Source: Vibrio cholerae ATCC 14035 (GTDB lineage: Bacteria > Pseudomonadota > Gammaproteobacteria > Enterobacterales > Vibrionaceae). Taken from it: DNA of 7,016 nucleotides. Positions 1 through 7,016 of the stretch are shown here, one piece after another. The notes beneath the pieces were generated by a model. It did no database searches. It had not been told where the DNA came from and saw only the letters and a list, made by a program, of their open reading frames with translations. The position numbers were made by a program, and so were the translations under genes. Positions within the stretch are counted from its first letter, which is position 1; each line of letters starts with the position of its first letter. The DNA lies in assembly GCF_000621645.1 (NCBI RefSeq), contig NZ_JHXR01000046.1:1-7016 (forward strand), written 5' to 3'.

Positions 1-10
1 GGCGTTAGTT
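1..10 (+). repeat. attC (3' end only, R' core GTTAGTT); truncated by the window edge
   Basis: The window opens with GGCGTTAG, identical to the 3' terminus (..GGCGGGCGTTAG) of the complete VCRs at 3136-3150 and 6921-6931. Confidence 0.8.
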
Positions 11-412
11 TCTATCAAGAAAAATCATCAAAAGCTCAGGTTCAACGTTTTGAAAAATCAGCTTTCAAGTTGTCCGACTTGGTTTTTGAGTTTCAGGCTG
101 ATGTTGCATTGGTAGAAAGTGTTGGAAGTTCAACAGTTTCAAAATTGCTGAAAATCAGCAAGCCTCGAAGCTTCAATGTTGTTGGATTTTCCACACGGTC
201 AGTTTGGTTTCACAAATAGCTGCATCATCGCTGTGATCTGGCTTTCTTTGTCGCCGACTCTTAACCGAGGCCAACTTAACCTTGATCGTTTTAAGTTTTG
301 GCTGCCAACTTCACAGCTTTTGGTGTTGGACGTGTGCTTGTTCGATGCATTTGCGTAAAATGACTTTCAAGCAAATGTGTTAAAAAAGTCATTGCTAAAC
401 AATAGGCTACGA
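11..412. other. Cassette body without a supportable ORF (paralog of 3151-3557); possible ncRNA cassette or decayed gene
   Basis: Aligns almost without gaps by eye to 3151-3557. Conserved blocks include TCTGGCTTTCTTTGTCGC, AGTTTGGTTTCACAAA and AGCAAGCCTCGA. The track ORFs 176-358 and 3314-3550 use different frames over the homologous sequence. No ATG-initiated ORF is conserved on either strand. Confidence 0.45.
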
Positions 413-542
413 AACTAACAAACGCCTCAAGAGGGACTGTCAACGCGCGGCGTTTCCAGTCCCATTGAGCCGCGGTGGTTTCGGTGGTTTGTGTTTGGGT
501 TTGGTTGTTATGCGTTGTCAGCCCCTTAGGCGGGCGTTATGC
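413..542 (+). repeat. attC site, VCR family (belongs to cassette 5-536)
   Basis: The site runs R'' AACTAAC, then AAACGCCTCAAGAGGGACTGTCAACGCG...CCCCTTAGGCGGGC, then R' GTTATGC. GAAACTAA at 411-418 is the reverse complement of the cassette start TTAGTTTC at 5-12. Confidence 0.9.
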
Positions 543-557
543 CTTTTGGGAGACAAT

Positions 558-1031
558 ATGCAGTTTTACAAAGCAGATGAATATCAGGCATCTTGTGAAA
601 ACCTGTATCGTAAGTACGAACTTGAGATAGCTGCTTTACTTCCAGATGCATCTATTGAGCATATTGGAACTTCCTCTATTCCTAATGCTGTATCTAAAGG
701 TGACCTAGACATACTTGTTGGTGTTAACGGCAAGGAACTAGAAAATGCAGTAAAGTTACTTTCTACTCTAGGTTTCAACGAAAAATCCGATACGTTAAGA
801 ACTCCGGAGCTTTGCATGCTGGAAAATAGCTCAGGTGAGGATGTCGCTTTTCAAGTTGTAGCTAATGGTTCGGAATTTGAGTTTTTTGTGGGGTTTAGAG
901 ACAAACTCCGTAAAAATCCTGAGTTAGTTCAACGATACAATGAGCTGAAAATATCTTGTACAGGTTGGTCTCACGAAGAGTATCGTCGGAAAAAATCAGC
1001 TTTTATTGAGCGCGTGTTAGGGCAGGCATAA
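558..1031 (+). CDS. GrpB/UPF0157 family (nucleotidyltransferase-fold) protein, 157 aa
   Basis: Motifs IEHIGTSSIPNAVSKGDLDILVGV and FRDKLRKNPELVQRYNELK fit the GrpB pattern (IEHIGST..P....KP.IDI, FRD.LR..P.....Y..LK). The first ATG outside the attC is at 558. The track start at 465 lies inside the VCR. The stop TAA (1029-1031) is embedded in the next R'' core. Confidence 0.8.
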   Translation: MQFYKADEYQASCENLYRKYELEIAALLPDASIEHIGTSSIPNAVSKGDLDILVGVNGKELENAVKLLSTLGFNEKSDTLRTPELCMLENSSGEDVAFQVVANGSEFEFFVGFRDKLRKNPELVQRYNELKISCTGWSHEEYRRKKSAFIERVLGQA

Positions 1032-1151
1032 CAAACTGTTTAAGAGTGATTCGCAACGCGTGGCATTTTTACTATGCGTTGGTTTTATTGATTAAGGTGG
1101 TATGCGGAAGCATCGGTATTGCGTTGCTCACACCTTAACAGGGCGTTATGC
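1026..1151 (+). repeat. attC site, variant family B (non-VCR)
   Basis: The site runs R'' GCATAAC, then AAACTGTTTAAGAGTGATTCGCAACGCG...GCGTTGCTCACACCTTAACAGGGC, then R' GTTATGC. It has the VCR architecture, but the L''/L' arms are CTGTT/AACAG rather than CGCCT/AGGCG. GGCATAA is complementary to the cassette start TTATGCC at 537-543. Confidence 0.88.
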
Positions 1152-1179
1152 CACAGCCAGAAAATATGGAGAAAAGGAA

Positions 1180-1806
1180 ATGGATCTTAATTCACTACTA
1201 CTGTTTATAGTCGCTTGTCTTGCTATCAATATGATACCAGGGCCAGACGTTATCTATATTGTTTCAAACACAATGAAAGGTAAGTTGGTCACTGGGTTCA
1301 AAGCTGCAATGGGACTTGGTGTAGGTTATTTTGTTCATACTTTAGCAGCTTCATTAGGATTATCTGCAATTATCCTCAGCTCAGCGGTAGCTTTTAGCGC
1401 AGTCAAATGGTTGGGTGCTGCTTATCTAGTCTATTTGGGTGTTCAGTCGTTACTTTCAATGTGGCGTGGGGGTAGCACATTGAAAGTAAGTGAAAGCGTT
1501 GAAAGTGACAAAAATGTATTTGTACAAGGCGTAATTGTTAGTGTATTAAACCCGAAAGTTGCACTGTTCTTCCTTTCGTTCCTGCCTCAGTTTATTGACA
1601 CATCATCAGGTTCGGCTTCGATGCAATTATTGTGGCTTGGTTTGTTATTTAGCGTACTGGCTACAATGTGTAATATCCTGTATGCGTCAGTAGGTAGTTG
1701 GGGCTTTAGTCGCCCGAATTCTCAGCGCTACTCGCGAGGGCTAGAGGGCGTATCTGGTGTTTTACTTATTGGGCTAGCAAGCAAAGTTGCGATCAGCGAT
1801 CGCTAG
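1180..1806 (+). CDS. LysE/RhtB family amino-acid (homoserine/threonine-type) exporter, 208 aa
   Basis: The N-terminus is MDLNSLLLFIVACLAINMIPGPDVIYIVSNTMKGK..G, a PGP-containing first helix typical of LysE/RhtB. The protein has multiple hydrophobic helices and a length of about 208 aa. GGAGAAAAGGAAATG supplies an SD-like purine run. The track start at 1102 lies inside attC-B. Confidence 0.85.
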   Translation: MDLNSLLLFIVACLAINMIPGPDVIYIVSNTMKGKLVTGFKAAMGLGVGYFVHTLAASLGLSAIILSSAVAFSAVKWLGAAYLVYLGVQSLLSMWRGGSTLKVSESVESDKNVFVQGVIVSVLNPKVALFFLSFLPQFIDTSSGSASMQLLWLGLLFSVLATMCNILYASVGSWGFSRPNSQRYSRGLEGVSGVLLIGLASKVAISDR

Positions 1807-1808
1807 TG

Positions 1809-1932
1809 GCATAACAAACAATTCAAGCAGACCCTCAACGCTCGGCGATTTTGGTTTGCGTCGGGTTTGGCGTTGCCGAGCAATGCGGTAGGTGAGCCAG
1901 GGCGTTTCGGGCTACTTAATTGGGCGTTATGA
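1809..1932 (+). repeat. attC site, variant family C (non-VCR)
   Basis: The site runs R'' GCATAAC, then AAACAATTCAAGCAGACCCTCAACGC...GGGCTACTTAATTGGGC, then R' GTTATGA. The L''/L' arms are CAATT/AATTG. GGCATAA is complementary to the cassette start TTATGCC at 1146-1152. Confidence 0.85.
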
Positions 1933-1946
1933 ATAAAGGAGATAGT

Positions 1947-2627
1947 GTGGAAAAATGTTACATGTGCGATGCAGAGGGAAACACTAAGGAGCATGTACCT
2001 CCTAAATGTATATTTCCTGAGGCAAAAGATGTTCCAAGTGGGGATAATTATAAAAAGAACCTTATAACTGTTCGCTCTTGTGAGAAACATAATACGGCAA
2101 AGTCAAAAGATGACGTATATCTATTGTTCTTTTTAGCAGCTAATGTTGTGTCAAACGATCTTGCTCAGACGCAGTTTGGCACGAAAATTATGAGAGCAGT
2201 AAATAGAACACCTCATGTATTTGCTCAGTTCGCTAAGAAAAATACACCAGTAACTCTTAAAGGTGAAAATGGTGAATTGATTCATACTGCTGCCATTGAA
2301 ATTGATCGTGCTCGATTTGATGCTGCAATTGAACATATTTCTCATGCATTGCATTACCACAAGTATGGAGAGACATTTATTGGTGATATTCAGGTTATTA
2401 CCAGTGGGTTGGTGGACCTATCAAGTATCGATAGTGTGGAGGTAAACGATAGAATTCAAAACTTTGGTCAAATGGTTGATGAGCTGTTAGCTGATGTAGA
2501 ACCTGAAGGTGATAACCCTGAAGTATTCACTTATAAGGTGTTAAAAACAGATGAACCTCATCAAGTCATTATCCAGATGAATTTTTATGGTGGTTTTAAG
2601 ATCGTTTCGATCATGAAGTACTCTTAA
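1947..2627 (+). CDS. HNH (beta-beta-alpha-Me) nuclease-motif protein with an uncharacterised C-terminal domain of about 170 aa
   Basis: The N-terminus reads C-Y-M-C...EHVPPK...NLITVRSC-E-K-H-N-TAKSKDD, giving CxxC...(E)H...N...CxxH spacing typical of an HNH zinc-finger nuclease core (nt 1956-2093). The GTG at 1947 follows AAGGAG (1936-1941). An in-frame ATG at 1929 lies inside the R' core and an ATG at 1962 is also possible, so the start is uncertain by up to 18 nt. Confidence 0.7.
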   Translation: MEKCYMCDAEGNTKEHVPPKCIFPEAKDVPSGDNYKKNLITVRSCEKHNTAKSKDDVYLLFFLAANVVSNDLAQTQFGTKIMRAVNRTPHVFAQFAKKNTPVTLKGENGELIHTAAIEIDRARFDAAIEHISHALHYHKYGETFIGDIQVITSGLVDLSSIDSVEVNDRIQNFGQMVDELLADVEPEGDNPEVFTYKVLKTDEPHQVIIQMNFYGGFKIVSIMKYS

Positions 2628-2634
2628 CCAATAT

Positions 2635-2760
2635 TCATAACAAACTGTTCAAGAGGGATTCGCAACGCGTGGCATTTTTACTATGCGTTGAATTTAGTGG
2701 TTAAGGTGGTATGCGGCGGCTTCGGTATTGCATTGCTCACCCCTTAACAGGGCGTTAACT
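2635..2760 (+). repeat. attC site, variant family B
   Basis: The site runs R'' TCATAAC, then AAACTGTTCAAGAGGGATTCGCAACGCG...CTCACCCCTTAACAGGGC, then R' GTTAACT. TTCATAA is complementary to the cassette start TTATGAA at 1927-1933. Confidence 0.88.
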
Positions 2761-2806
2761 GGCAAAATGGAAATGCCAAAAGCATCTGAGCAAAAGGAGT
2801 TTGCAA

Positions 2807-2968
2807 ATGTTTCGTTGTGGGCAATGCCGTCATTTCGAAAGAGCTAAAAATAATCTCAAGGATCTTTGTGGTGCTTGGGAACAACCTACGACTGCAACGC
2901 GTGAAGCTTGCGGATTTTTTATGCTCAGAAAACCAGCCCGAGATGTGAAAACACCAAATGAAGAGTAG
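2807..2968 (+). CDS. Small Cys-rich hypothetical protein, 53 aa (MFRCGQCRHF...; CxxC plus two further Cys), copy 1
   Basis: It is below the track's size cutoff. A strong SD, AAGGAG (2794-2799), lies 7 nt upstream of the ATG. A second copy sits at 5761-5922. All 4 nucleotide differences between the copies (2881, 2920, 2947, 2959) fall on third codon positions and are synonymous in this frame. All 4 are non-synonymous in the antisense 102-aa track ORF. Confidence 0.75.
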   Translation: MFRCGQCRHFERAKNNLKDLCGAWEQPTTATREACGFFMLRKPARDVKTPNEE

Positions 2969-3021
2969 AGTAATTTTCTTTGTGTTGGTTAAAAGTGCAG
3001 TGAAAATCATAAGCACCGGCC

Positions 3022-3150
3022 AGTTAACAAACGCCTCAAGAGGGACTGTCAACGCGTGGCGTTTCCAGTCCCATTGAGCCGCGGTGGTTTCGGCTGTTGT
3101 GTTTGAGTTTAGTGGTAATGCGTTGCCAGCCCCTTAGGCGGGCGTTAGCT
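3022..3150 (+). repeat. attC site, VCR family
   Basis: The site runs R'' AGTTAAC, then the VCR consensus, then R' GTTAGCT. AGTTAA is complementary to the cassette start TTAACT at 2755-2760. Confidence 0.92.
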
Positions 3151-3557
3151 TCTTAAAGCAAAAATCATCAAACTCTGGGTTTAATTGTCCTGAAAATTCA
3201 GATATTAGTGTTCAAATTGCACAATTTGGCTTTTGAACTTTTCTTGATGCTGATTTGGTCGAACGTGTTGAAAGTTCAGTGGGTTCAAAGTCGCTGAAAA
3301 CTAGCAAGCCTCGATGCTTCAAAGTTGTTGGATGTTCAACACTCAAAGTTTGGTTTCACAAAAGGCTGCATTATCTCTGTGTTCTGGCTTTCTTTGTCGC
3401 GGATTCTTAACCGTGGTCAACTTAGCCTTGAGCGCTTTGAGTTTTGGCAGCCAACTTCACAGCTTTTGGCTCTGGACGTGTGTTTGTGTGATGCATTTGC
3501 GTAGAATACATTTCAAGAAAATGTATTTAAAAATCATTGTTAAACAATAGGCTACGA
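3151..3557. other. Cassette body without a supportable ORF (paralog of 11-412)
   Basis: See 11-412. The 78-aa track ORF (3314-3550) is not frame-conserved with the 60-aa ORF in the paralog. Confidence 0.45.
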
Positions 3558-3686
3558 AGCTAACAAACGCCTCAAGAGGGACTGTCAACGCGTGGCGTTT
3601 CCAGTCCCATTGAGCCGCGGTGGTTACGGTTGTTGTGATTGAGTTTAGTGGTAATGCGTTTCCAGCCCCTTAGGCGGGCGTTAGGT
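3558..3686 (+). repeat. attC site, VCR family
   Basis: The site runs R'' AGCTAAC, then the VCR consensus, then R' GTTAGGT. GAAGCTAA is complementary to the cassette start TTAGCTTC at 3145-3152. Confidence 0.92.
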
Positions 3687-3718
3687 GAATGGTCAGTGGA
3701 TTGAACAAGGACAGTTTT

Positions 3719-4114
3719 ATGAAATGGTTTTTAGCTTTTTGGCTTGTTCTCGCAAGCTTTTTTTCGGTCGGCTTGCATGCCAATGACTCCGTTTTACAAC
3801 AAGCTTATAAATCGCAACAAAGTGATCTACAGGTTCAAGGATTCGGAAAGGTAGTGAAAGTGTTACCTGATGACAATGATGGTTCAAAGCATCAAAAATT
3901 CATCTTAAAGCTCAATAGCGGACAAACATTGCTGGTTGCTCATAACATCGACTTAGCACCGAGAATTCCAAACTTACAGGTTGGTGACAGTGTTGAGTTT
4001 TATGGTGAATACGAATGGAACAAAAAGGGTGGAGTTCTTCACTGGACTCATAAAGATCCTCAAAATCGTCATGCTCATGGTTGGTTGAAACACAATGGGC
4101 AGGTGTACGAGTAA
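3719..4114 (+). CDS. Secreted DUF3465-family protein, 131 aa, with an N-terminal signal peptide
   Basis: MKWFLAFWLVLASFFSVGLHA|ND looks like a Sec signal peptide. The core DDNDGSKHQKFILKL.SGQTLLVAHNIDLAPRIP.L.VGD.V.FYGEYEWNKKGGVLHWTHKDP...H..GW matches the conserved DUF3465 pattern as I recall it. AAGGA at 3707-3711 precedes the ATG at 3719. The track start at 3689 directly abuts the attC. Confidence 0.8.
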   Translation: MKWFLAFWLVLASFFSVGLHANDSVLQQAYKSQQSDLQVQGFGKVVKVLPDDNDGSKHQKFILKLNSGQTLLVAHNIDLAPRIPNLQVGDSVEFYGEYEWNKKGGVLHWTHKDPQNRHAHGWLKHNGQVYE

Positions 4115-4118
4115 ATTC

Positions 4119-4247
4119 ACCTAACAAACGCCTCAAGAGGGACTGTCAACGCGTAGCGTTTCCAGTCCCATTGAGCCGCGGTGGTTACGGTTGCTGTGTT
4201 TCAGTTTAGTGGTAATGCGTTGCCAGCCCCTTAGGCGGGCGTTATGC
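4119..4247 (+). repeat. attC site, VCR family
   Basis: The site runs R'' ACCTAAC, then the VCR consensus, then R' GTTATGC. TCACCTAA is complementary to the cassette start TTAGGTGA at 3681-3688. Confidence 0.92.
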
Positions 4248-4541
4248 GCCGAATATTGGGTTCACATCCATGCTCTTATGAAGAATTCGGATCACCCTGA
4301 TTTGTTGGCTGCCGGTTTGCTGATAAAAGATGACGTGACTCCCTTGGGGAAATTTTCTGTATCCCTCTCGGATTTCATCGCATGATTTACCAATGTCGGG
4401 ATTTTCCGCTAAAAGCCAAAAGGAATCATCGAATTGCTTTAAATAAACATTTCGCTGCTCTTTTCCCCAGCGTCGTTGAGTGAATAAAGCAATATCACGT
4501 AAATCGGCTTTGGCGGCGACGGTAAGATTAAATGGTTTCAT
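4242..4541 (-). CDS. parE: ParE-family type II toxin (RelE/ParE superfamily), 99 aa
   Basis: MKPFNLTVAAKADLRDIALFTQRRWGKEQRNVYLKQF......NPDIGK.CDEIREGYRKFPQGSHVIFYQ......IRVIRILHKSMD is a typical ParE sequence. Its ATG overlaps the upstream antitoxin stop by 4 nt (ATGA, 4538-4541). It is antisense to the array, as is usual for superintegron TA cassettes. Confidence 0.9.
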   Translation of the reverse strand: MKPFNLTVAAKADLRDIALFTQRRWGKEQRNVYLKQFDDSFWLLAENPDIGKSCDEIREGYRKFPQGSHVIFYQQTGSQQIRVIRILHKSMDVNPIFGA

Positions 4542-4780
4542 CGAATGTTTTCACTATCGAGTTCATTGATGAAGCTATCAAGGTCATAATCAGCGTCACC
4601 ACTTTGCTCTCCTTCAATAAGTAGTTGACGGAGTGACTGTAGTTTGGTTTCTTGGTTTTCGAGTAGACGTAGCGCAGAGCGAATGACTTCACTTGCTGAG
4701 CCGTAACGCCCACTTTGTATTTGGCTTGTAATAAAGCCATCGAAGTGTTCACCAAGAGTGATACTTGTATTTTTAGCCAT
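4538..4780 (-). CDS. parD: ParD-family type II antitoxin (ribbon-helix-helix, COG3609-like), 80 aa
   Basis: MAKNTSITLGEHFDGFITSQIQSGRYGSASEVIRSALRLLE is the ParD RHH N-terminus and is followed by an acidic C-terminus. It is translationally coupled to parE. GGAG lies 8 nt upstream of the ATG. Confidence 0.9.
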   Translation of the reverse strand: MAKNTSITLGEHFDGFITSQIQSGRYGSASEVIRSALRLLENQETKLQSLRQLLIEGEQSGDADYDLDSFINELDSENIR

Positions 4781-4796
4781 GAGCTCATCTCCATAA

Positions 4797-4842
4797 ATAC
4801 CAAAAAGTACCTAATTATGGTATCAAATGGCATTTTGGGCAA
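4797..4842 (-). promoter_or_regulatory. Putative parDE sigma70 promoter with an overlapping inverted-repeat operator
   Basis: On the minus strand, TTGCCC (4842-4837) is followed by a 17-nt spacer and then CATAAT (4819-4814). The inverted repeat ATACCA (4797-4802) / TGGTAT (4818-4823) overlaps the -10 element, as expected for antitoxin autorepression. This comes from pattern matching only. Confidence 0.5.
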
Positions 4843-4847
4843 GGCGC

Positions 4848-4975
4848 GCATAACAAACGCCTCAAGCGGGACTGTCAACGCGTGGCGTTTCCAGTCCCAT
4901 TGAGCCGCGGTGGTTTCGGTTGTTGTGATTGAGTTTAGTGTTATGCGTTGCCAGCCCCTTAGGCGGGCGTTATGT
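4848..4975 (+). repeat. attC site, VCR family
   Basis: The site runs R'' GCATAAC, then the VCR consensus, then R' GTTATGT. GCGCATAA is complementary to the cassette start TTATGCGC at 4242-4249. Confidence 0.92.
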
Positions 4976-5008
4976 GCCATTTCAAACATTTAGGAATATT
5001 AGGACAAA

Positions 5009-5587
5009 ATGAGTGTAGAGTTAACATCTGCTGTATTTGCAAGCGACATTGTAGAATTCAAAGAAAACAACGATAAAAATAGTATCATCCAGCTTGTGAA
5101 GCATAGATATGATGAGCGATTTATCAATCCATTCAGAGATAATTCTCAAAAACATGGCTTTGCGATGATGGCTGTATGCTGCTTAATGGTTGAATCACTA
5201 ATATCTATGAAGCGAGGTATTAATGAAACTTCAGATGCAAGAAATGAGCAGGGTCACAAGATATACTCAGGTGAACTATTCGAAGAGTTTTTTAGCGAGT
5301 CTTCATATTTTTGTGGTTTTTCTGGGTTAGGTAGGGATTTCTATAAACATATTCGCTGTGGAATTCTACATCAAGCTGAAACTACAGGTGGGTGGAGAAT
5401 TAGAAGAAAAGGTGAACTTGTTGATAAAAATGAAAAGATAATAAATGCAACTAAGTTCATGAATGCATTGGAAAGTGAATTGAATGCCTATCTACACAAA
5501 TTAGAAATAGAAGATTTTACGGATCTTGTATGGGTTAACCTGCTTAAGAAAATAGATTTTATTGCTTCCAATGCAGTCGGCGACTAG
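5009..5587 (+). CDS. Hypothetical protein, 192 aa, apparently all-alpha, with an Rx4H motif (possible HEPN-like RNase; speculative)
   Basis: It is a clean ORF filling the cassette, with AGGA at 5001-5004 upstream of the ATG. I recognise no family. The motif FYKHI-R-CGIL-H-QAET (R116..H121, nt 5354-5371) fits the Rx4-6H signature of HEPN domains in a helix-rich protein of appropriate size. Confidence 0.6.
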   Translation: MSVELTSAVFASDIVEFKENNDKNSIIQLVKHRYDERFINPFRDNSQKHGFAMMAVCCLMVESLISMKRGINETSDARNEQGHKIYSGELFEEFFSESSYFCGFSGLGRDFYKHIRCGILHQAETTGGWRIRRKGELVDKNEKIINATKFMNALESELNAYLHKLEIEDFTDLVWVNLLKKIDFIASNAVGD

Positions 5588-5588
5588 C

Positions 5589-5714
5589 ACATAACAAACT
5601 GTTTAAGAGTGATTCGCAACGCATGGCATTTTGACTATGCGTTGCGTTTAGTGTTTAAGGTGGTATGCGGAGGCTTCGGTATTGCGTTGCTCACACCTTA
5701 ACAGGGCGTTAACT
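5589..5714 (+). repeat. attC site, variant family B
   Basis: The site runs R'' ACATAAC, then AAACTGTTTAAGAGTGATTCGCAACGCA...CTCACACCTTAACAGGGC, then R' GTTAACT. GCACATAA is complementary to the cassette start TTATGTGC at 4970-4977. Confidence 0.88.
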
Positions 5715-5760
5715 GGCAAAATGGAAATGCCAAAAGCATCTGAGCAAAAGGAGTTTGCAA

Positions 5761-5922
5761 ATGTTTCGTTGTGGGCAATGCCGTCATTTCGAAAGAGCTA
5801 AAAATAATCTCAAGGATCTTTGTGGTGCTTGGGAGCAACCTACGACTGCAACGCGTGAAGCTTGCGGATTTTTCATGCTCAGAAAACCAGCCCGAGATGT
5901 AAAAACACCAAACGAAGAGTAG
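5761..5922 (+). CDS. Small Cys-rich hypothetical protein, 53 aa, copy 2 (protein identical to 2807-2968)
   Basis: It has the same SD and ATG context as copy 1. It differs from copy 1 only by 4 synonymous third-position changes. Confidence 0.75.
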   Translation: MFRCGQCRHFERAKNNLKDLCGAWEQPTTATREACGFFMLRKPARDVKTPNEE

Positions 5923-5975
5923 AGTAATCTTCTTTGTGTTGGTTAAAAGTGCAGTGAAAATCATAAGCACTGGCC

Positions 5976-6104
5976 AGTTAACAAACGCCTCAAGAGGGAC
6001 TGTCAACGCGCGGCGTTTCCAGTCCCATTGAGCCGCAGTGGTTACGGTTATTGTGTTTGAGTTTGGTGGTAATGCGTTGTCAGCCCCTTAGGCGGGCGTT
6101 ATAA
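5976..6104 (+). repeat. attC site, VCR family
   Basis: The site runs R'' AGTTAAC, then the VCR consensus, then R' GTTATAA. Confidence 0.92.
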
Positions 6105-6124
6105 CGATTTGGAGACGTTAGAGT

Positions 6125-6808
6125 ATGAAATATCGAAGTAAATGGGAACTCTGCTTTAATGCTTATAAAAAAGAGTGTACTCGAATTGTGATTTTCAAAG
6201 AAAGCCTTAAGTTTATAAGCTTTAAATTTAAAGCACTTATTTTTATTTCGATCATTCTCTTTGGAATATTCTTAGCTTTGGCAATAATCTCAGCAATCAA
6301 TAATAATCGAGATATGTACTACGTATACCTCGTTGCATTTTTATTTTTTGAAACCTCTAGCTTGATTTCTGTATTTAAAGCCCAGAAAAAATATACTAAT
6401 GAAGAGTATTCAGATTATGAGTTATCCCAAGCACCACCGGAAGATTATAAAGATCAAAAAGCTAGATATTTAAAGTTTCGTAGAGCTCTTAGGCTAAATG
6501 ATATTGAGCAATCTCACGTAAGTGGAATATTGGAAATCCTTGAATCAAGAATCGCTGTATGTGAAAACAGTGGAGTTAGTGTACAAAAAATAGTCGGTTT
6601 TTCTATTACATTTGCAATGTCAGTTTTAGTTGCAACAATGAAAAGCTTAACTATTCAGACAATTGCTCAAATTGGTGTTATTGGGGTGTTTTCAATTGCT
6701 TTTGTTTATATTTTGCATAAATTAACACCCAATACGAGAGAACAGTTGTATGAGTTAAAATATTTTTTAACAATGTTCAGTTATGAAGATCATGAAAAAT
6801 CGTTATAA
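6125..6808 (+). CDS. Hypothetical integral membrane protein, 227 aa (2 TM, a charged central region of about 70 aa, then 2 TM)
   Basis: Hydrophobic segments are ALIFISIILFGIFLALAIISAI, MYYVYLVAFLFFETSSLISVF, IVGFSITFAMSVLVATM and IAQIGVIGVFSIAFVYILH. GGAG at 6111-6114 lies upstream of the ATG. The stop TAA (6806-6808) is embedded in the R'' core. I recognise no family. Confidence 0.65.
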   Translation: MKYRSKWELCFNAYKKECTRIVIFKESLKFISFKFKALIFISIILFGIFLALAIISAINNNRDMYYVYLVAFLFFETSSLISVFKAQKKYTNEEYSDYELSQAPPEDYKDQKARYLKFRRALRLNDIEQSHVSGILEILESRIAVCENSGVSVQKIVGFSITFAMSVLVATMKSLTIQTIAQIGVIGVFSIAFVYILHKLTPNTREQLYELKYFLTMFSYEDHEKSL

Positions 6809-6931
6809 CAAACGCCTTAAGAGGGACTGCCAACGCGTGGCATTTCCAGTCCCAATGAGCCGTGGTGGTTACGGTTGTTGTGTTTGAGTTTCGTTGTTAT
6901 GCGTTGTCAGCCCCTTAGGCGGGCGTTAGGC
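6803..6931 (+). repeat. attC site, VCR family
   Basis: The site runs R'' TTATAAC, then a VCR consensus with a few substitutions (CCTTAAGAGGGACTGCCAACGCG), then R' GTTAGGC. CGTTATAA is complementary to the cassette start TTATAACG at 6099-6106. Confidence 0.9.
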
Positions 6932-6959
6932 GCTTTCTTGCTAATGTTAGATCAATCCC

Positions 6960-7016
6960 TTAGAACAACTTCTTGTAATGATTGATAATCAACTCAAATT
7001 TATCCTCAAGATGAGT
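6960..7016 (-). CDS. 3' end of a minus-strand ORF running out of the window (..THLEDKFELIINHYKKLF*), function unknown
   Basis: An open minus-strand frame runs from the window edge to a TAA at 6962-6960. Only 18 codons are visible. The inverted orientation in an integron array hints at a TA or self-expressed cassette, but this is not assignable. Confidence 0.3.
   Translation of the reverse strand, partial: THLEDKFELIINHYKKLF

Follow-up and report, generated by a model that had tools for sequence, protein, structure and literature searches.

The described systems closest to the locus analyzed here are integron cassettes of Vibrio cholerae reported by Darracq et al. (bioRxiv 10.1101/2024.07.02.601686; Science 2025, 388:eads0768). 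In that work, challenge with five vibriophages and 23 coliphages led to 16 anti-phage cassettes, none of which was found by DefenseFinder. Two of the single-gene systems, Sirona and Nemetona, are called distant relatives of His-Me finger (HNH) endonucleases in the preprint, which also names the phage protein NinG as a distant relative of the pair. Sirona is described there as one of the three most widespread systems, with occurrences in 34 genera of Pseudomonadota, and is reported to have been recovered again in an independent survival selection with ICP2 and T4 (the 'tab' selection). Here, we examine a 7,016-bp stretch of V. cholerae ATCC 14035 (contig NZ_JHXR01000046.1, positions 1–7,016; hereafter, the window) and one cassette within it, at positions 1927–2754, that encodes a small protein with an HNH-like motif. 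A first-pass annotation, made by a model from the sequence alone, had proposed that this cassette carries an HNH nuclease core fused to an unassigned domain and functions as a compact defense or abortive-infection module.

The best overall explanation, to which we assign a probability of roughly 0.72, is that the cassette is VCA0356, a verified anti-phage gene that is most likely Sirona and that encodes an HNH-type nuclease center together with an orphan module. VCA0356 is already known as a defense gene and as an HNH-like cassette, so it is not a new discovery; with its defense role in print, the discovery value of the locus is low. Its value lies elsewhere. A partner-free, nuclease-like protein of 226 amino acids that is accompanied by neither a methylase nor an immunity gene presents a clean problem of self versus non-self recognition. 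The family to which it belongs is larger and wider than the published blastp survey suggests, extending to plasmids, defense islands, and other integrons. No Pfam, NCBIfam, or PADLOC v2 model covers this family, which renders it invisible to annotation pipelines.

Identity of the cassette

The target cassette (828 bp, 38.2% GC, plus strand) is delimited by its crossover points at 1927 and 2754 and was placed within the superintegron by cassette counting. Its gene spans positions 1947–2627 of the plus strand and encodes a standalone HNH-like protein of 226 amino acids when translated from a GTG codon, or 232 amino acids when translated from an ATG at position 1929; this assignment draws on the list of open reading frames (ORFs), an exact-sequence look-up, the family alignment, and an AlphaFold2 (AF2) model. 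The exact protein is present on approximately 1,000 V. cholerae contigs, pandemic El Tor strains among them. In complete V. cholerae chromosome-2 records, the target is preceded, in order, by a RelE/ParE-type toxin–antitoxin (TA) pair, a lipocalin, a 194-aa ORF, a gene-less cassette, GrpB, and LysE. It is followed by a 53-aa ORF, a gene-less cassette, DUF3465, ParDE, a 192-aa ORF, a second 53-aa ORF, and a 227-aa ORF. Further downstream lie an 88-aa ORF, DUF6338, a 311-aa Mrr_cat protein, and a two-gene cassette interrupted by an insertion sequence (IS). Mapping of attC sites across a 20-kb chromosome locus revealed nine cassettes between two TA cassettes, the target being the sixth.

We compared this order with Extended Data (ED) Table 1 of bioRxiv 10.64898/2026.03.17.712381, which covers 178 cassettes of strain N16961. 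The rows of that table that bear on the placement are 51 (VCA0348/49, TA), 57 (VCA0356, flagged 'PD system'), 58 (VCA0356a), 61 (VCA0359/60, TA), 67 (VCA0366, PD system), and 68 (VCA0367-72, PD system/IS). The descriptions of Epona (cassette 67) and Sucellos (cassette 68) by Darracq et al. fit the Mrr_cat protein and the IS-interrupted two-gene cassette, respectively. Because both sets of anchors, TA cassettes 51 and 61 on the one hand and Epona 67 with Sucellos/IS 68 on the other, agree on the placement, the target is cassette 57, or VCA0356, of the seventh-pandemic, N16961-type V. cholerae superintegron.

ParD and ParE of the window are 100% identical to the proteins in PDB entries 7B22 and 7R5A (VcParD2:ParE2). 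Together with the position of their cassette, this identity assigns parDE2 to cassette 61 (VCA0359/VCA0360). An alternative placement suggested by parDE2, in which the window would correspond to cassettes 72–84 and the target to VCA0382 (cassette 76, which has no defense hit), was excluded by the downstream gene order (Mrr_cat/Epona, then Sucellos with its IS) and by attC counts.

One record, AP026559.1, differs from the three others with which it was compared in the cassettes upstream of GrpB, where the usual set has given way to a DUF6602 protein (Damona-like; 629–1420), acetyltransferases, and a TacA-type TA pair. Cassettes close to the target have thus been rearranged, whereas the segment that extends from GrpB to Epona is conserved.

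Anti-phage function and name

Primer '356.for' is among those given by Darracq et al. (bioRxiv 10.1101/2024.07.02.601686) for 'the 16 anti-phage cassettes'. The loci in that primer set are 308, 322, 356, 366, 367-368, 374, 396, 399, 409, 410, 419, 441, 446-447, 450, 457, and 458, and the same 16 are flagged 'PD system' in ED Table 1 (bioRxiv 10.64898/2026.03.17.712381). Since VCA0356 appears in the primer set and carries the flag, it is, by publication, an experimentally verified anti-phage cassette. The proposal of a compact, single-gene anti-phage module made in the first-pass annotation is thereby supported.

Which of the published names belongs to VCA0356 is a matter of probability. Sirona is the likeliest, because the protein contains an HNH-like motif, belongs to a very wide family, and does not resemble NinG; we regard this identification as probable, and Nemetona, the second candidate, as unlikely. 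If the sentence in which Darracq et al. introduce the two systems is read as 'respectively', the target fits Sirona, which would be the type II restriction-endonuclease-like member of the pair, better than Nemetona. One point weighs against the identification: VCA0356 could be another of the 16, such as Belenos, if the authors saw no HNH in it. Homology of the target to NinG was considered and rejected: hhalign against an alignment of 24 NinG sequences gave E-values of 0.13–0.17 across only 11 columns, and the corresponding Pfam family was not matched.

An HNH-like module at the N-terminus

The N-terminal His-Me/HNH-like module occupies positions 1956–2114 of the plus strand, as delineated by invariant alignment columns, predicted secondary structure, and hhalign. 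Residues are numbered according to the 232-aa form of the protein. The signature CxxC...EH...CxxHN is formed by C10 (1956–1958), C13 (1965–1967), E21-H22 (1989–1994), C51 (2079–2081), H54 (2088–2090), and N55 (2091–2093). The motif coordinates given in the first-pass annotation are exact to the base, and its description of the cassette as single-gene is correct. C10, C13, E21, H22, C51, H54, and N55 are invariant over 61 family members with identities as low as 31%, which argues that the signature is not a chance pattern. In full, the invariant residues of the module in this alignment are C13, E21, H22, P24, P25, F29, P30, K33, L45, C51, H54, N55, and D62; C10 is invariant wherever the position is present, and C27, K58, S59, and D61 are nearly so. 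When the motif was written as a regular expression and applied to approximately 1,100 unrelated ORFs, it recovered one further protein, which is a classical HNH protein, and one paralogue.

The AF2 model of the target protein (pLDDT 88, pTM 0.86) depicts one compact globule. Assignment of secondary structure with DSSP predicts strands at residues 19–22 and 47–50 and a helix at residues 52–72, such that H22 would end β1 and H54/N55 would start the helix. The isolated N-terminal module is predicted to adopt the same β-β-α order. Thus, the topology characteristic of β-β-α-metal nucleases is present in the predicted structure of the module.

Comparison with a classical HNH protein encoded in one of the fetched loci places the individual residues. 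The N-terminal profile aligned with this protein by hhalign with P = 0.004 over 43 columns, in a register that pairs CxxC with CxxC, EH with DH, and C51-x2-H54-N55-x2-K58 with C-x2-C-N-x2-K (CKKCNSKK). This register puts His54 in the place of the fourth zinc cysteine and Asn55 in the position of a metal ligand. The comparison protein itself scores below the curated cut-offs of the HNH models (HNH_5, 21.8 bits; HNH, 20.3 bits). A natural-like consensus of the family matched HNH_5 across the whole motif with E = 0.044, and one of the 61 members matched the same model weakly (E = 0.068). Three of the 61 weakly matched PtuB, the HNH nuclease of Septu, with E-values down to 0.002. Two family members are labeled 'HNH endonuclease' in UniRef. 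The C51-x2-H54-N55-x2-K58 segment is also in register with CVVCNQHK of NinG.

Several results weigh against assigning the module to the HNH superfamily. The target protein matched no Pfam or NCBIfam model, and the best HNH_5 score obtained, 14.1 bits, lies under the curated cut-off of 27.5. The comparison with NinG was not significant either. The structural comparison by which the first-pass annotation had proposed to confirm the HNH fold on an AlphaFold model did not bear it out: Foldseek searches of PDB and BFVD with the whole AF2 model and with the isolated N-terminal module returned no HNH structure. The separately predicted 72-aa module gave a single irrelevant match. The top matches of the full model (profilin, Roadblock/Ragulator-like proteins, and lipocalins) were dropped for probabilities below 0.6 and TM scores below 0.25. 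The PADLOC screen that had also been recommended left the target protein unmatched, PHROGs gave one insignificant match, and PDB sequences gave none that was significant; the 61-member profile likewise produced only chance matches to PDB sequences. A search of a 5.8-billion-protein collection with the N-terminal profile recovered only fragments of the same family and no bridge to Pfam-annotated HNH proteins. Finally, the family lacks a conserved Asn in the middle position of the H-N-H triad: position 44 varies (N, Q, D, E, T, and others), and it is L45 that is invariant. Many His-Me families are without this middle Asn.

Some of these results also favor a rival explanation, namely that CxxC...CxxH is a structural treble-clef or zinc ribbon and the protein is a non-catalytic binder of DNA or RNA that would protect the cell by binding or blocking a phage component. 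The domain goes unrecognized by curated HNH models and fold searches alike, the classical middle Asn is missing as a conserved feature, and one consensus matched a Cys-His zinc-finger family (C5HCH, E = 0.021) no worse than it matched HNH_5. A purely structural zinc site, however, does not account for invariant residues outside the zinc ligands at the catalytic positions of HNH enzymes, which include E21-H22 at the end of β1, N55 at the start of the helix, and D61/D62. It also leaves unexplained why hhalign sets every element of the motif opposite its counterpart in a classical HNH protein (P = 0.004) and why relatives weakly match the Septu nuclease PtuB. We therefore judge a non-catalytic binder to be very unlikely. 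The N-terminal module is very probably a divergent HNH/His-Me nuclease center with a C3H zinc site. This reading relies on evidence that converges below threshold, together with the published HHpred statement; no single test reached significance. For the HNH core claimed at the outset, then, motif, predicted topology, and sub-threshold matches are in favor, whereas curated cut-offs and the fold search are not.

The C-terminal region

The remainder of the protein is an α/β region of approximately 157 amino acids (positions 2154–2624, plus strand) that corresponds to no assignable family or fold, as judged by profile and structure searches, conservation, and the model. In the AF2 model, residues 76 to 232 (approximate boundaries) form helices and a β-sheet that are packed on the N-terminal module. 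Conserved residues of the region are N76, R89, R129, G194, N196, F200, Y202, F219, and Y220, several of which belong to a GxNPEVFxY motif. R89, R129, and GxNPEVFxY would suit contacts with nucleic acid. The region matched no Pfam, NCBIfam, or PADLOC model and no PDB sequence significantly, and Foldseek found nothing significant for it in PDB or BFVD. The statement that some 170 amino acids could not be assigned to any family thus holds; the accompanying idea of a fused sensing domain is speculation.

A bolder and less likely reading is that this region of approximately 165 amino acids, which is conserved across more than 1,400 clusters at 50% identity that lack any Pfam model, constitutes a new fold through which the protein itself would sense phage or select its substrate. 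The protein would then belong to an unclassified, very widespread class of partner-free immune nucleases contained in one polypeptide. If true, the rule by which self is distinguished from non-self, for example through recognition of hypermodified or branched phage DNA, would be unlike that of known type II or type IV enzymes or of abortive-infection (Abi) systems.

Distribution and genomic context of the family

When grouped at 50% identity, the family comprises 1,421 clusters with E ≤ 1e-3, of which 733 have E ≤ 1e-10. Members are uniformly approximately 220–270 amino acids long and cover almost all of the query in alignments, and none of those listed carries a precomputed Pfam domain. The family extends over more than 10 phyla, including Pseudomonadota, Bacteroidota, Planctomycetota, Nitrospirota, Desulfobacterota, Acidobacteriota, Spirochaetota, and Campylobacterota, and is also found in Chlorobiaceae and on a plasmid of the cyanobacterium Nostoc. 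Within Pseudomonadota, approximately 45 named genera carry it. The horizontal origin suggested in the first-pass annotation is reasonable in light of this spread; the attC variant and GC content on which that suggestion had been based are, by themselves, weak evidence.

We surveyed the genomic context of the family in 80 loci from species-representative genomes. No neighboring gene is conserved across these loci, and neither a methyltransferase nor any other gene recurs. The single ORF of the cassette and the lack of a conserved neighbor in the 80 loci agree with the observation, made at first reading, that no immunity or methylase gene sits in the cassette. The absence of a conserved neighbor implies that the protein works alone or with universal host factors. 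The only recurrent feature of the context is a tandem paralogue, found in 3 of the 80 loci.

Such tandem paralogues lie side by side on the same strand, as in a Bacteroidota metagenome-assembled genome (MAG) that carries copies at 7046–7855 and 8001–8639. They could reflect diversification of specificity or formation of hetero-oligomers.

These data also bear on the proposal that the protein is an orphan restriction, selfish or homing, or addiction nuclease whose methylase or immunity factor is encoded elsewhere and that is kept because it stabilizes the cassette rather than for defense. Many type II restriction enzymes and homing endonucleases contain HNH domains, and the superintegron is stabilized by many TA cassettes, such as ParDE2, which lies four cassettes from the target. 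An orphan restriction enzyme is at odds with the finding that no methyltransferase or other gene recurs in the 80 loci and across more than 10 phyla. A phage homing endonuclease is unlikely in view of the distribution of the family, which gave no match in 50,697 sequenced phage genomes (INPHARED) and occurs in IMG/VR in only 6 loci of 2.9 million contigs; there is no intron or intein context. As to addiction, Darracq et al. cloned the gene by itself and expressed it for plaque assays in cells devoid of the superintegron, so that it is not overtly toxic; VCA0356 carries no TA flag in ED Table 1 (bioRxiv 10.64898/2026.03.17.712381), and the cassette contains no second ORF. Taken together, these points make an orphan restriction, homing, or addiction nuclease extremely unlikely.

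Defense genes are frequent around the homologues. Immediate neighbors include Shedu SduA, a Thoeris TIR protein, PD-Lambda-4, a dGTPase, a type II restriction–modification pair, PDC-S15/FRG, PDC-S28, HipA, RES, and five integrases, and pAgo together with its nuclease partner, AbiE, Avs4, and MADS components occur six to eight genes away. By hand count from the family tables, strong defense matches make up approximately 8–11% of the genes sampled around homologues; the usual share of defense genes in bacterial genomes is 1–2%. As an argument for the defense reading, this neighborhood signal is weakened by the fact that distal genes are about as rich in defense genes as proximal ones, which leaves no clean background against which to measure it.

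The family is also associated with mobile elements. On a Marinobacter plasmid, the homologue adjoins a SIR2 gene between IS elements, and in Acinetobacter it is a cargo gene of a 9.8-kb plasmid. An attC-like site, called by an arm-duplex energy criterion, starts within 120 nt past the stop codon in 8 of 77 distant loci, compared with approximately one expected, which indicates that the gene also moves as an integron cassette outside Vibrio.

Two further homologues merit description. On the conjugative plasmid pMSMB608 of Burkholderia vietnamiensis, a homologue annotated as 303 amino acids (6785–7696) lies within an extended series of small hypothetical genes, all on one strand and flanked by IS elements, an arrangement that resembles the leading or accessory regions of plasmids. 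A contig of a Methanobacterium MAG encodes a 35%-identical homologue at 1097–1753, which may have arrived by horizontal transfer or may be a binning artifact.

Proposed mechanism

The cassette is a promoterless, mobilizable unit stored at position 57 of the array. In the model that we favor, it would be essentially silent in its native position, as a defense gene kept in reserve, and would become active once the integrase had moved it beside the Pc promoter or once it was expressed in a different setting. The gene would be silent in essentially all seventh-pandemic V. cholerae genomes, a point of relevance to phage therapy and prophylaxis against cholera.

The identity of the cassette, its anatomy, and the properties of the family are shown by the present data, and the anti-phage phenotype by publication; from conservation and the predicted structure, we infer how the expressed protein may act. 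Its N-terminal 60 or so residues would form a zinc-stabilized β-β-α-metal nuclease center of the His-Me/HNH type, with a putative C3H site in which zinc is held by Cys10, Cys13, Cys51, and His54. His22, which follows Glu21 at the end of β1, is the putative general base, and Asn55, probably together with Asp61/Asp62, would hold the catalytic metal. As a metal-dependent nuclease, the protein would cut nucleic acid during infection, and the remaining residues, approximately 165 in number, would constitute an orphan α/β module packed against the nuclease center.

How the host's own DNA might be spared, a question aptly raised in the first-pass annotation, is suggested by two observations. Plaque assays were carried out with VCA0356 as the only cloned gene in a host without the superintegron (Darracq et al., bioRxiv 10.1101/2024.07.02.601686), and no methyltransferase, immunity, or partner gene accompanies the family in any lineage. 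The viability of the overexpression strains, combined with the lack of any such gene, implies that self-sparing is intrinsic to the protein. We tentatively suggest, at somewhat less than even odds, that the orphan module makes the enzyme selective for a phage-specific substrate, for instance modified DNA or intermediates of replication or recombination, in a manner that would be type IV-like or structure-specific.

Intrinsic self-sparing could also be achieved if the protein were an abortive-infection nuclease that stays inactive until its C-terminal module senses a phage signal and then degrades host and phage nucleic acid indiscriminately, leading to arrest or death. According to Darracq et al., lysis or growth arrest at high multiplicity of infection was caused by eight of the nine systems that were active in V. 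cholerae, a set that may or may not include VCA0356. Sirona was recovered by the 'tab' selection, which was designed to capture abortive as well as direct systems, but the same selection recovers direct defenses too. An effector joined to a module of unassigned role is the architecture typical of single-protein Abi systems, and no partner or immunity gene is conserved in the 80 loci. Against an abortive mode of action, the model predicts a single compact globule with no separable sensor domain, and Foldseek detected no known sensor fold in PDB or BFVD. On balance, we rank an abortive nuclease second, as a less likely but serious alternative that the published growth arrest at high multiplicity of infection keeps in play, and continue to favor substrate selectivity conferred by the orphan module.

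Organization of the cassette and its neighbors

The window is an integron cassette array with two kinds of attC site, a VCR-type form of approximately 127 nt in seven copies and a variant form in three. The attC of the preceding LysE cassette (VCA0355) lies at 1808–1930 on the plus strand, as determined from sequence, attC alignment, and the positions of attC sites in the V. cholerae chromosome locus. The target cassette begins at the G|TT crossover at 1926|1927, which is supplied by the R' box of this site (GTTATG), and ends at a second G|TT crossover at 2754|2755. The start at 1927 given in the first-pass annotation is therefore correct, whereas the proper end is 2754 rather than 2760; the last bases belong to the R' box of the attC.

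The only substantial ORF in the cassette runs from 1929 (ATG) or 1947 (GTG) to 2627, and the remaining ORFs of the interval are short and overlap it in different frames. Public records contain the protein in versions of 232, 226, and 221 amino acids, which reflect three start calls. The ATG at 1929, which yields the 232-aa annotation, sits within the R' box GTTATG of the upstream attC. We favor GTG 1947 as the most likely translation start, which would give a protein of 226 amino acids, because a Shine-Dalgarno sequence, AAGGAG (1936–1941, plus strand), is found 5 nt upstream of it and because homologues start with MxxCYMC. No sigma-70-like promoter site was found upstream of the ORF. The target thus has the defining features of an integron cassette, a single promoterless ORF bounded by attC sites with G|TT crossovers.

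R' boxes of the sequence GTTATG at 536–541, 1146–1151, 1926–1931, 4242–4247, and 4972–4977 create an in-frame ATG that opens the next cassette.

The attC of the target cassette (2636–2760, plus strand) is a non-VCR variant that was defined by its repeat family, by alignment, and by an arm–arm duplex energy of -16.2 kcal/mol. Its boxes are R'' (ATAAC at 2638), L'' (CAAGAGGG), L' (CCCCTTAA), and R' (GTTAAC). The site (2636–2757) is 91–93% identical to 1027–1148 and 5590–5711, with which it makes up the three-copy variant; the center of this variant is unlike that of the seven VCR copies, with which it has the R'', L'', L', and R' ends in common. The description of the site as a non-VCR attC is accordingly confirmed. 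An unconstrained minimum-free-energy fold of its bottom strand was uninformative (z = -0.5), and an Rfam scan of the window gave no match. The cassette is AT-rich, as the first-pass annotation had noted by eye, with 38.2% GC against 41.1% for the whole window. It is not exceptional in this respect, since two neighboring cassettes are lower still, at 36.5% and 33.9%.

Other cassettes of the window have features of their own. A 300-bp block that comprises the non-VCR attC and a cassette for a Cys-rich protein is present twice (2636–2935 and 5590–5889; 96% identity). The Cys-rich protein, of 53–55 amino acids (MFRCGQCRHF...C...C), is encoded by ORFs at 2807–2968 and 5761–5922, which by position are VCA0356a and VCA0361a; it matched neither Pfam nor PADLOC. 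Two gene-less cassettes (1–539 and 3149–3684) have in common a 289-nt repeat (99–387 versus 3245–3533; 83% identity) that matched nothing in Rfam. Promoters have been reported in gene-less superintegron cassettes, and the two in the window could influence expression of the cassettes downstream of them. The ParD/ParE cassette (4242–4780) is the sole cassette of the window on the minus strand, and its own promoter is presumed. Two further AT-rich, single-ORF cassettes encode a 192-aa protein (5009–5587; GC 36.5%) and a 227-aa membrane protein (6125–6808; GC 33.9%); the first of these has the same attC variant as the target cassette. By position they are VCA0361 and VCA0363, and they have no significant family match and no defense flag in the published cassette table.

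Comparison with known systems

Two classes of system that comprise more than one gene do not fit the locus. Type II restriction–modification is distinguished by a cognate methyltransferase, but the cassette has a single ORF and no such gene is conserved next to the family in the 80 loci. Likewise, a TA module would require a second gene; there is no second ORF in the cassette and no conserved neighbor in the 80 loci. PADLOC-DB v2 (2023) contains no system model for the target, although weak matches to PtuB or PDC-M38B were obtained for 4 of the 61 relatives.

NinG/Rap of phage lambda (PF05766) is a structure-specific His-Me endonuclease that has a C-x2-[CH]-N-x2-K-S segment in common with the target. 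The target family, in contrast, has no phage members in INPHARED.

The type IV HNH enzymes McrA and GmrSD (DUF1524/GmrSD_C) offer a functional parallel: they stand alone, have no methyltransferase, and spare self DNA through their choice of substrate. The EH-x-P sequence of the target presumably resembles the EHIxP motif of GmrSD_C. The target is much smaller than these enzymes, and matches neither GmrSD_C nor any modified-base reader domain in Pfam.

Classical HNH nucleases (PF01844; HNH_5, PF14279), among them PtuB, have the same order of elements as the target, CxxC, [DE]H, and C-x2-[CH]-N-x2-K, on a β-β-α scaffold that in the target is predicted. The target differs in that its fourth zinc ligand would be His rather than Cys, its middle Asn is not conserved, and all of its scores fall below curated cut-offs. 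In addition, the loop between β1 and β2 is long (approximately 24 amino acids) and contains an invariant motif of its own, PPKCIFPExKD. The target family acts alone, whereas PtuB works with the ATPase PtuA.

Sirona and Nemetona of Darracq et al. are, by comparison, not analogues of the target but the same object, inasmuch as VCA0356 is one of the 16 cassettes verified in that report. They have in common with the target that they consist of a single, small gene, are recognizable as HNH-like only by remote-homology methods, and are missed by DefenseFinder and PADLOC. The published distribution of Sirona comprises 34 genera of Pseudomonadota; our count for the target family is approximately 45 genera of that phylum, in addition to other phyla.

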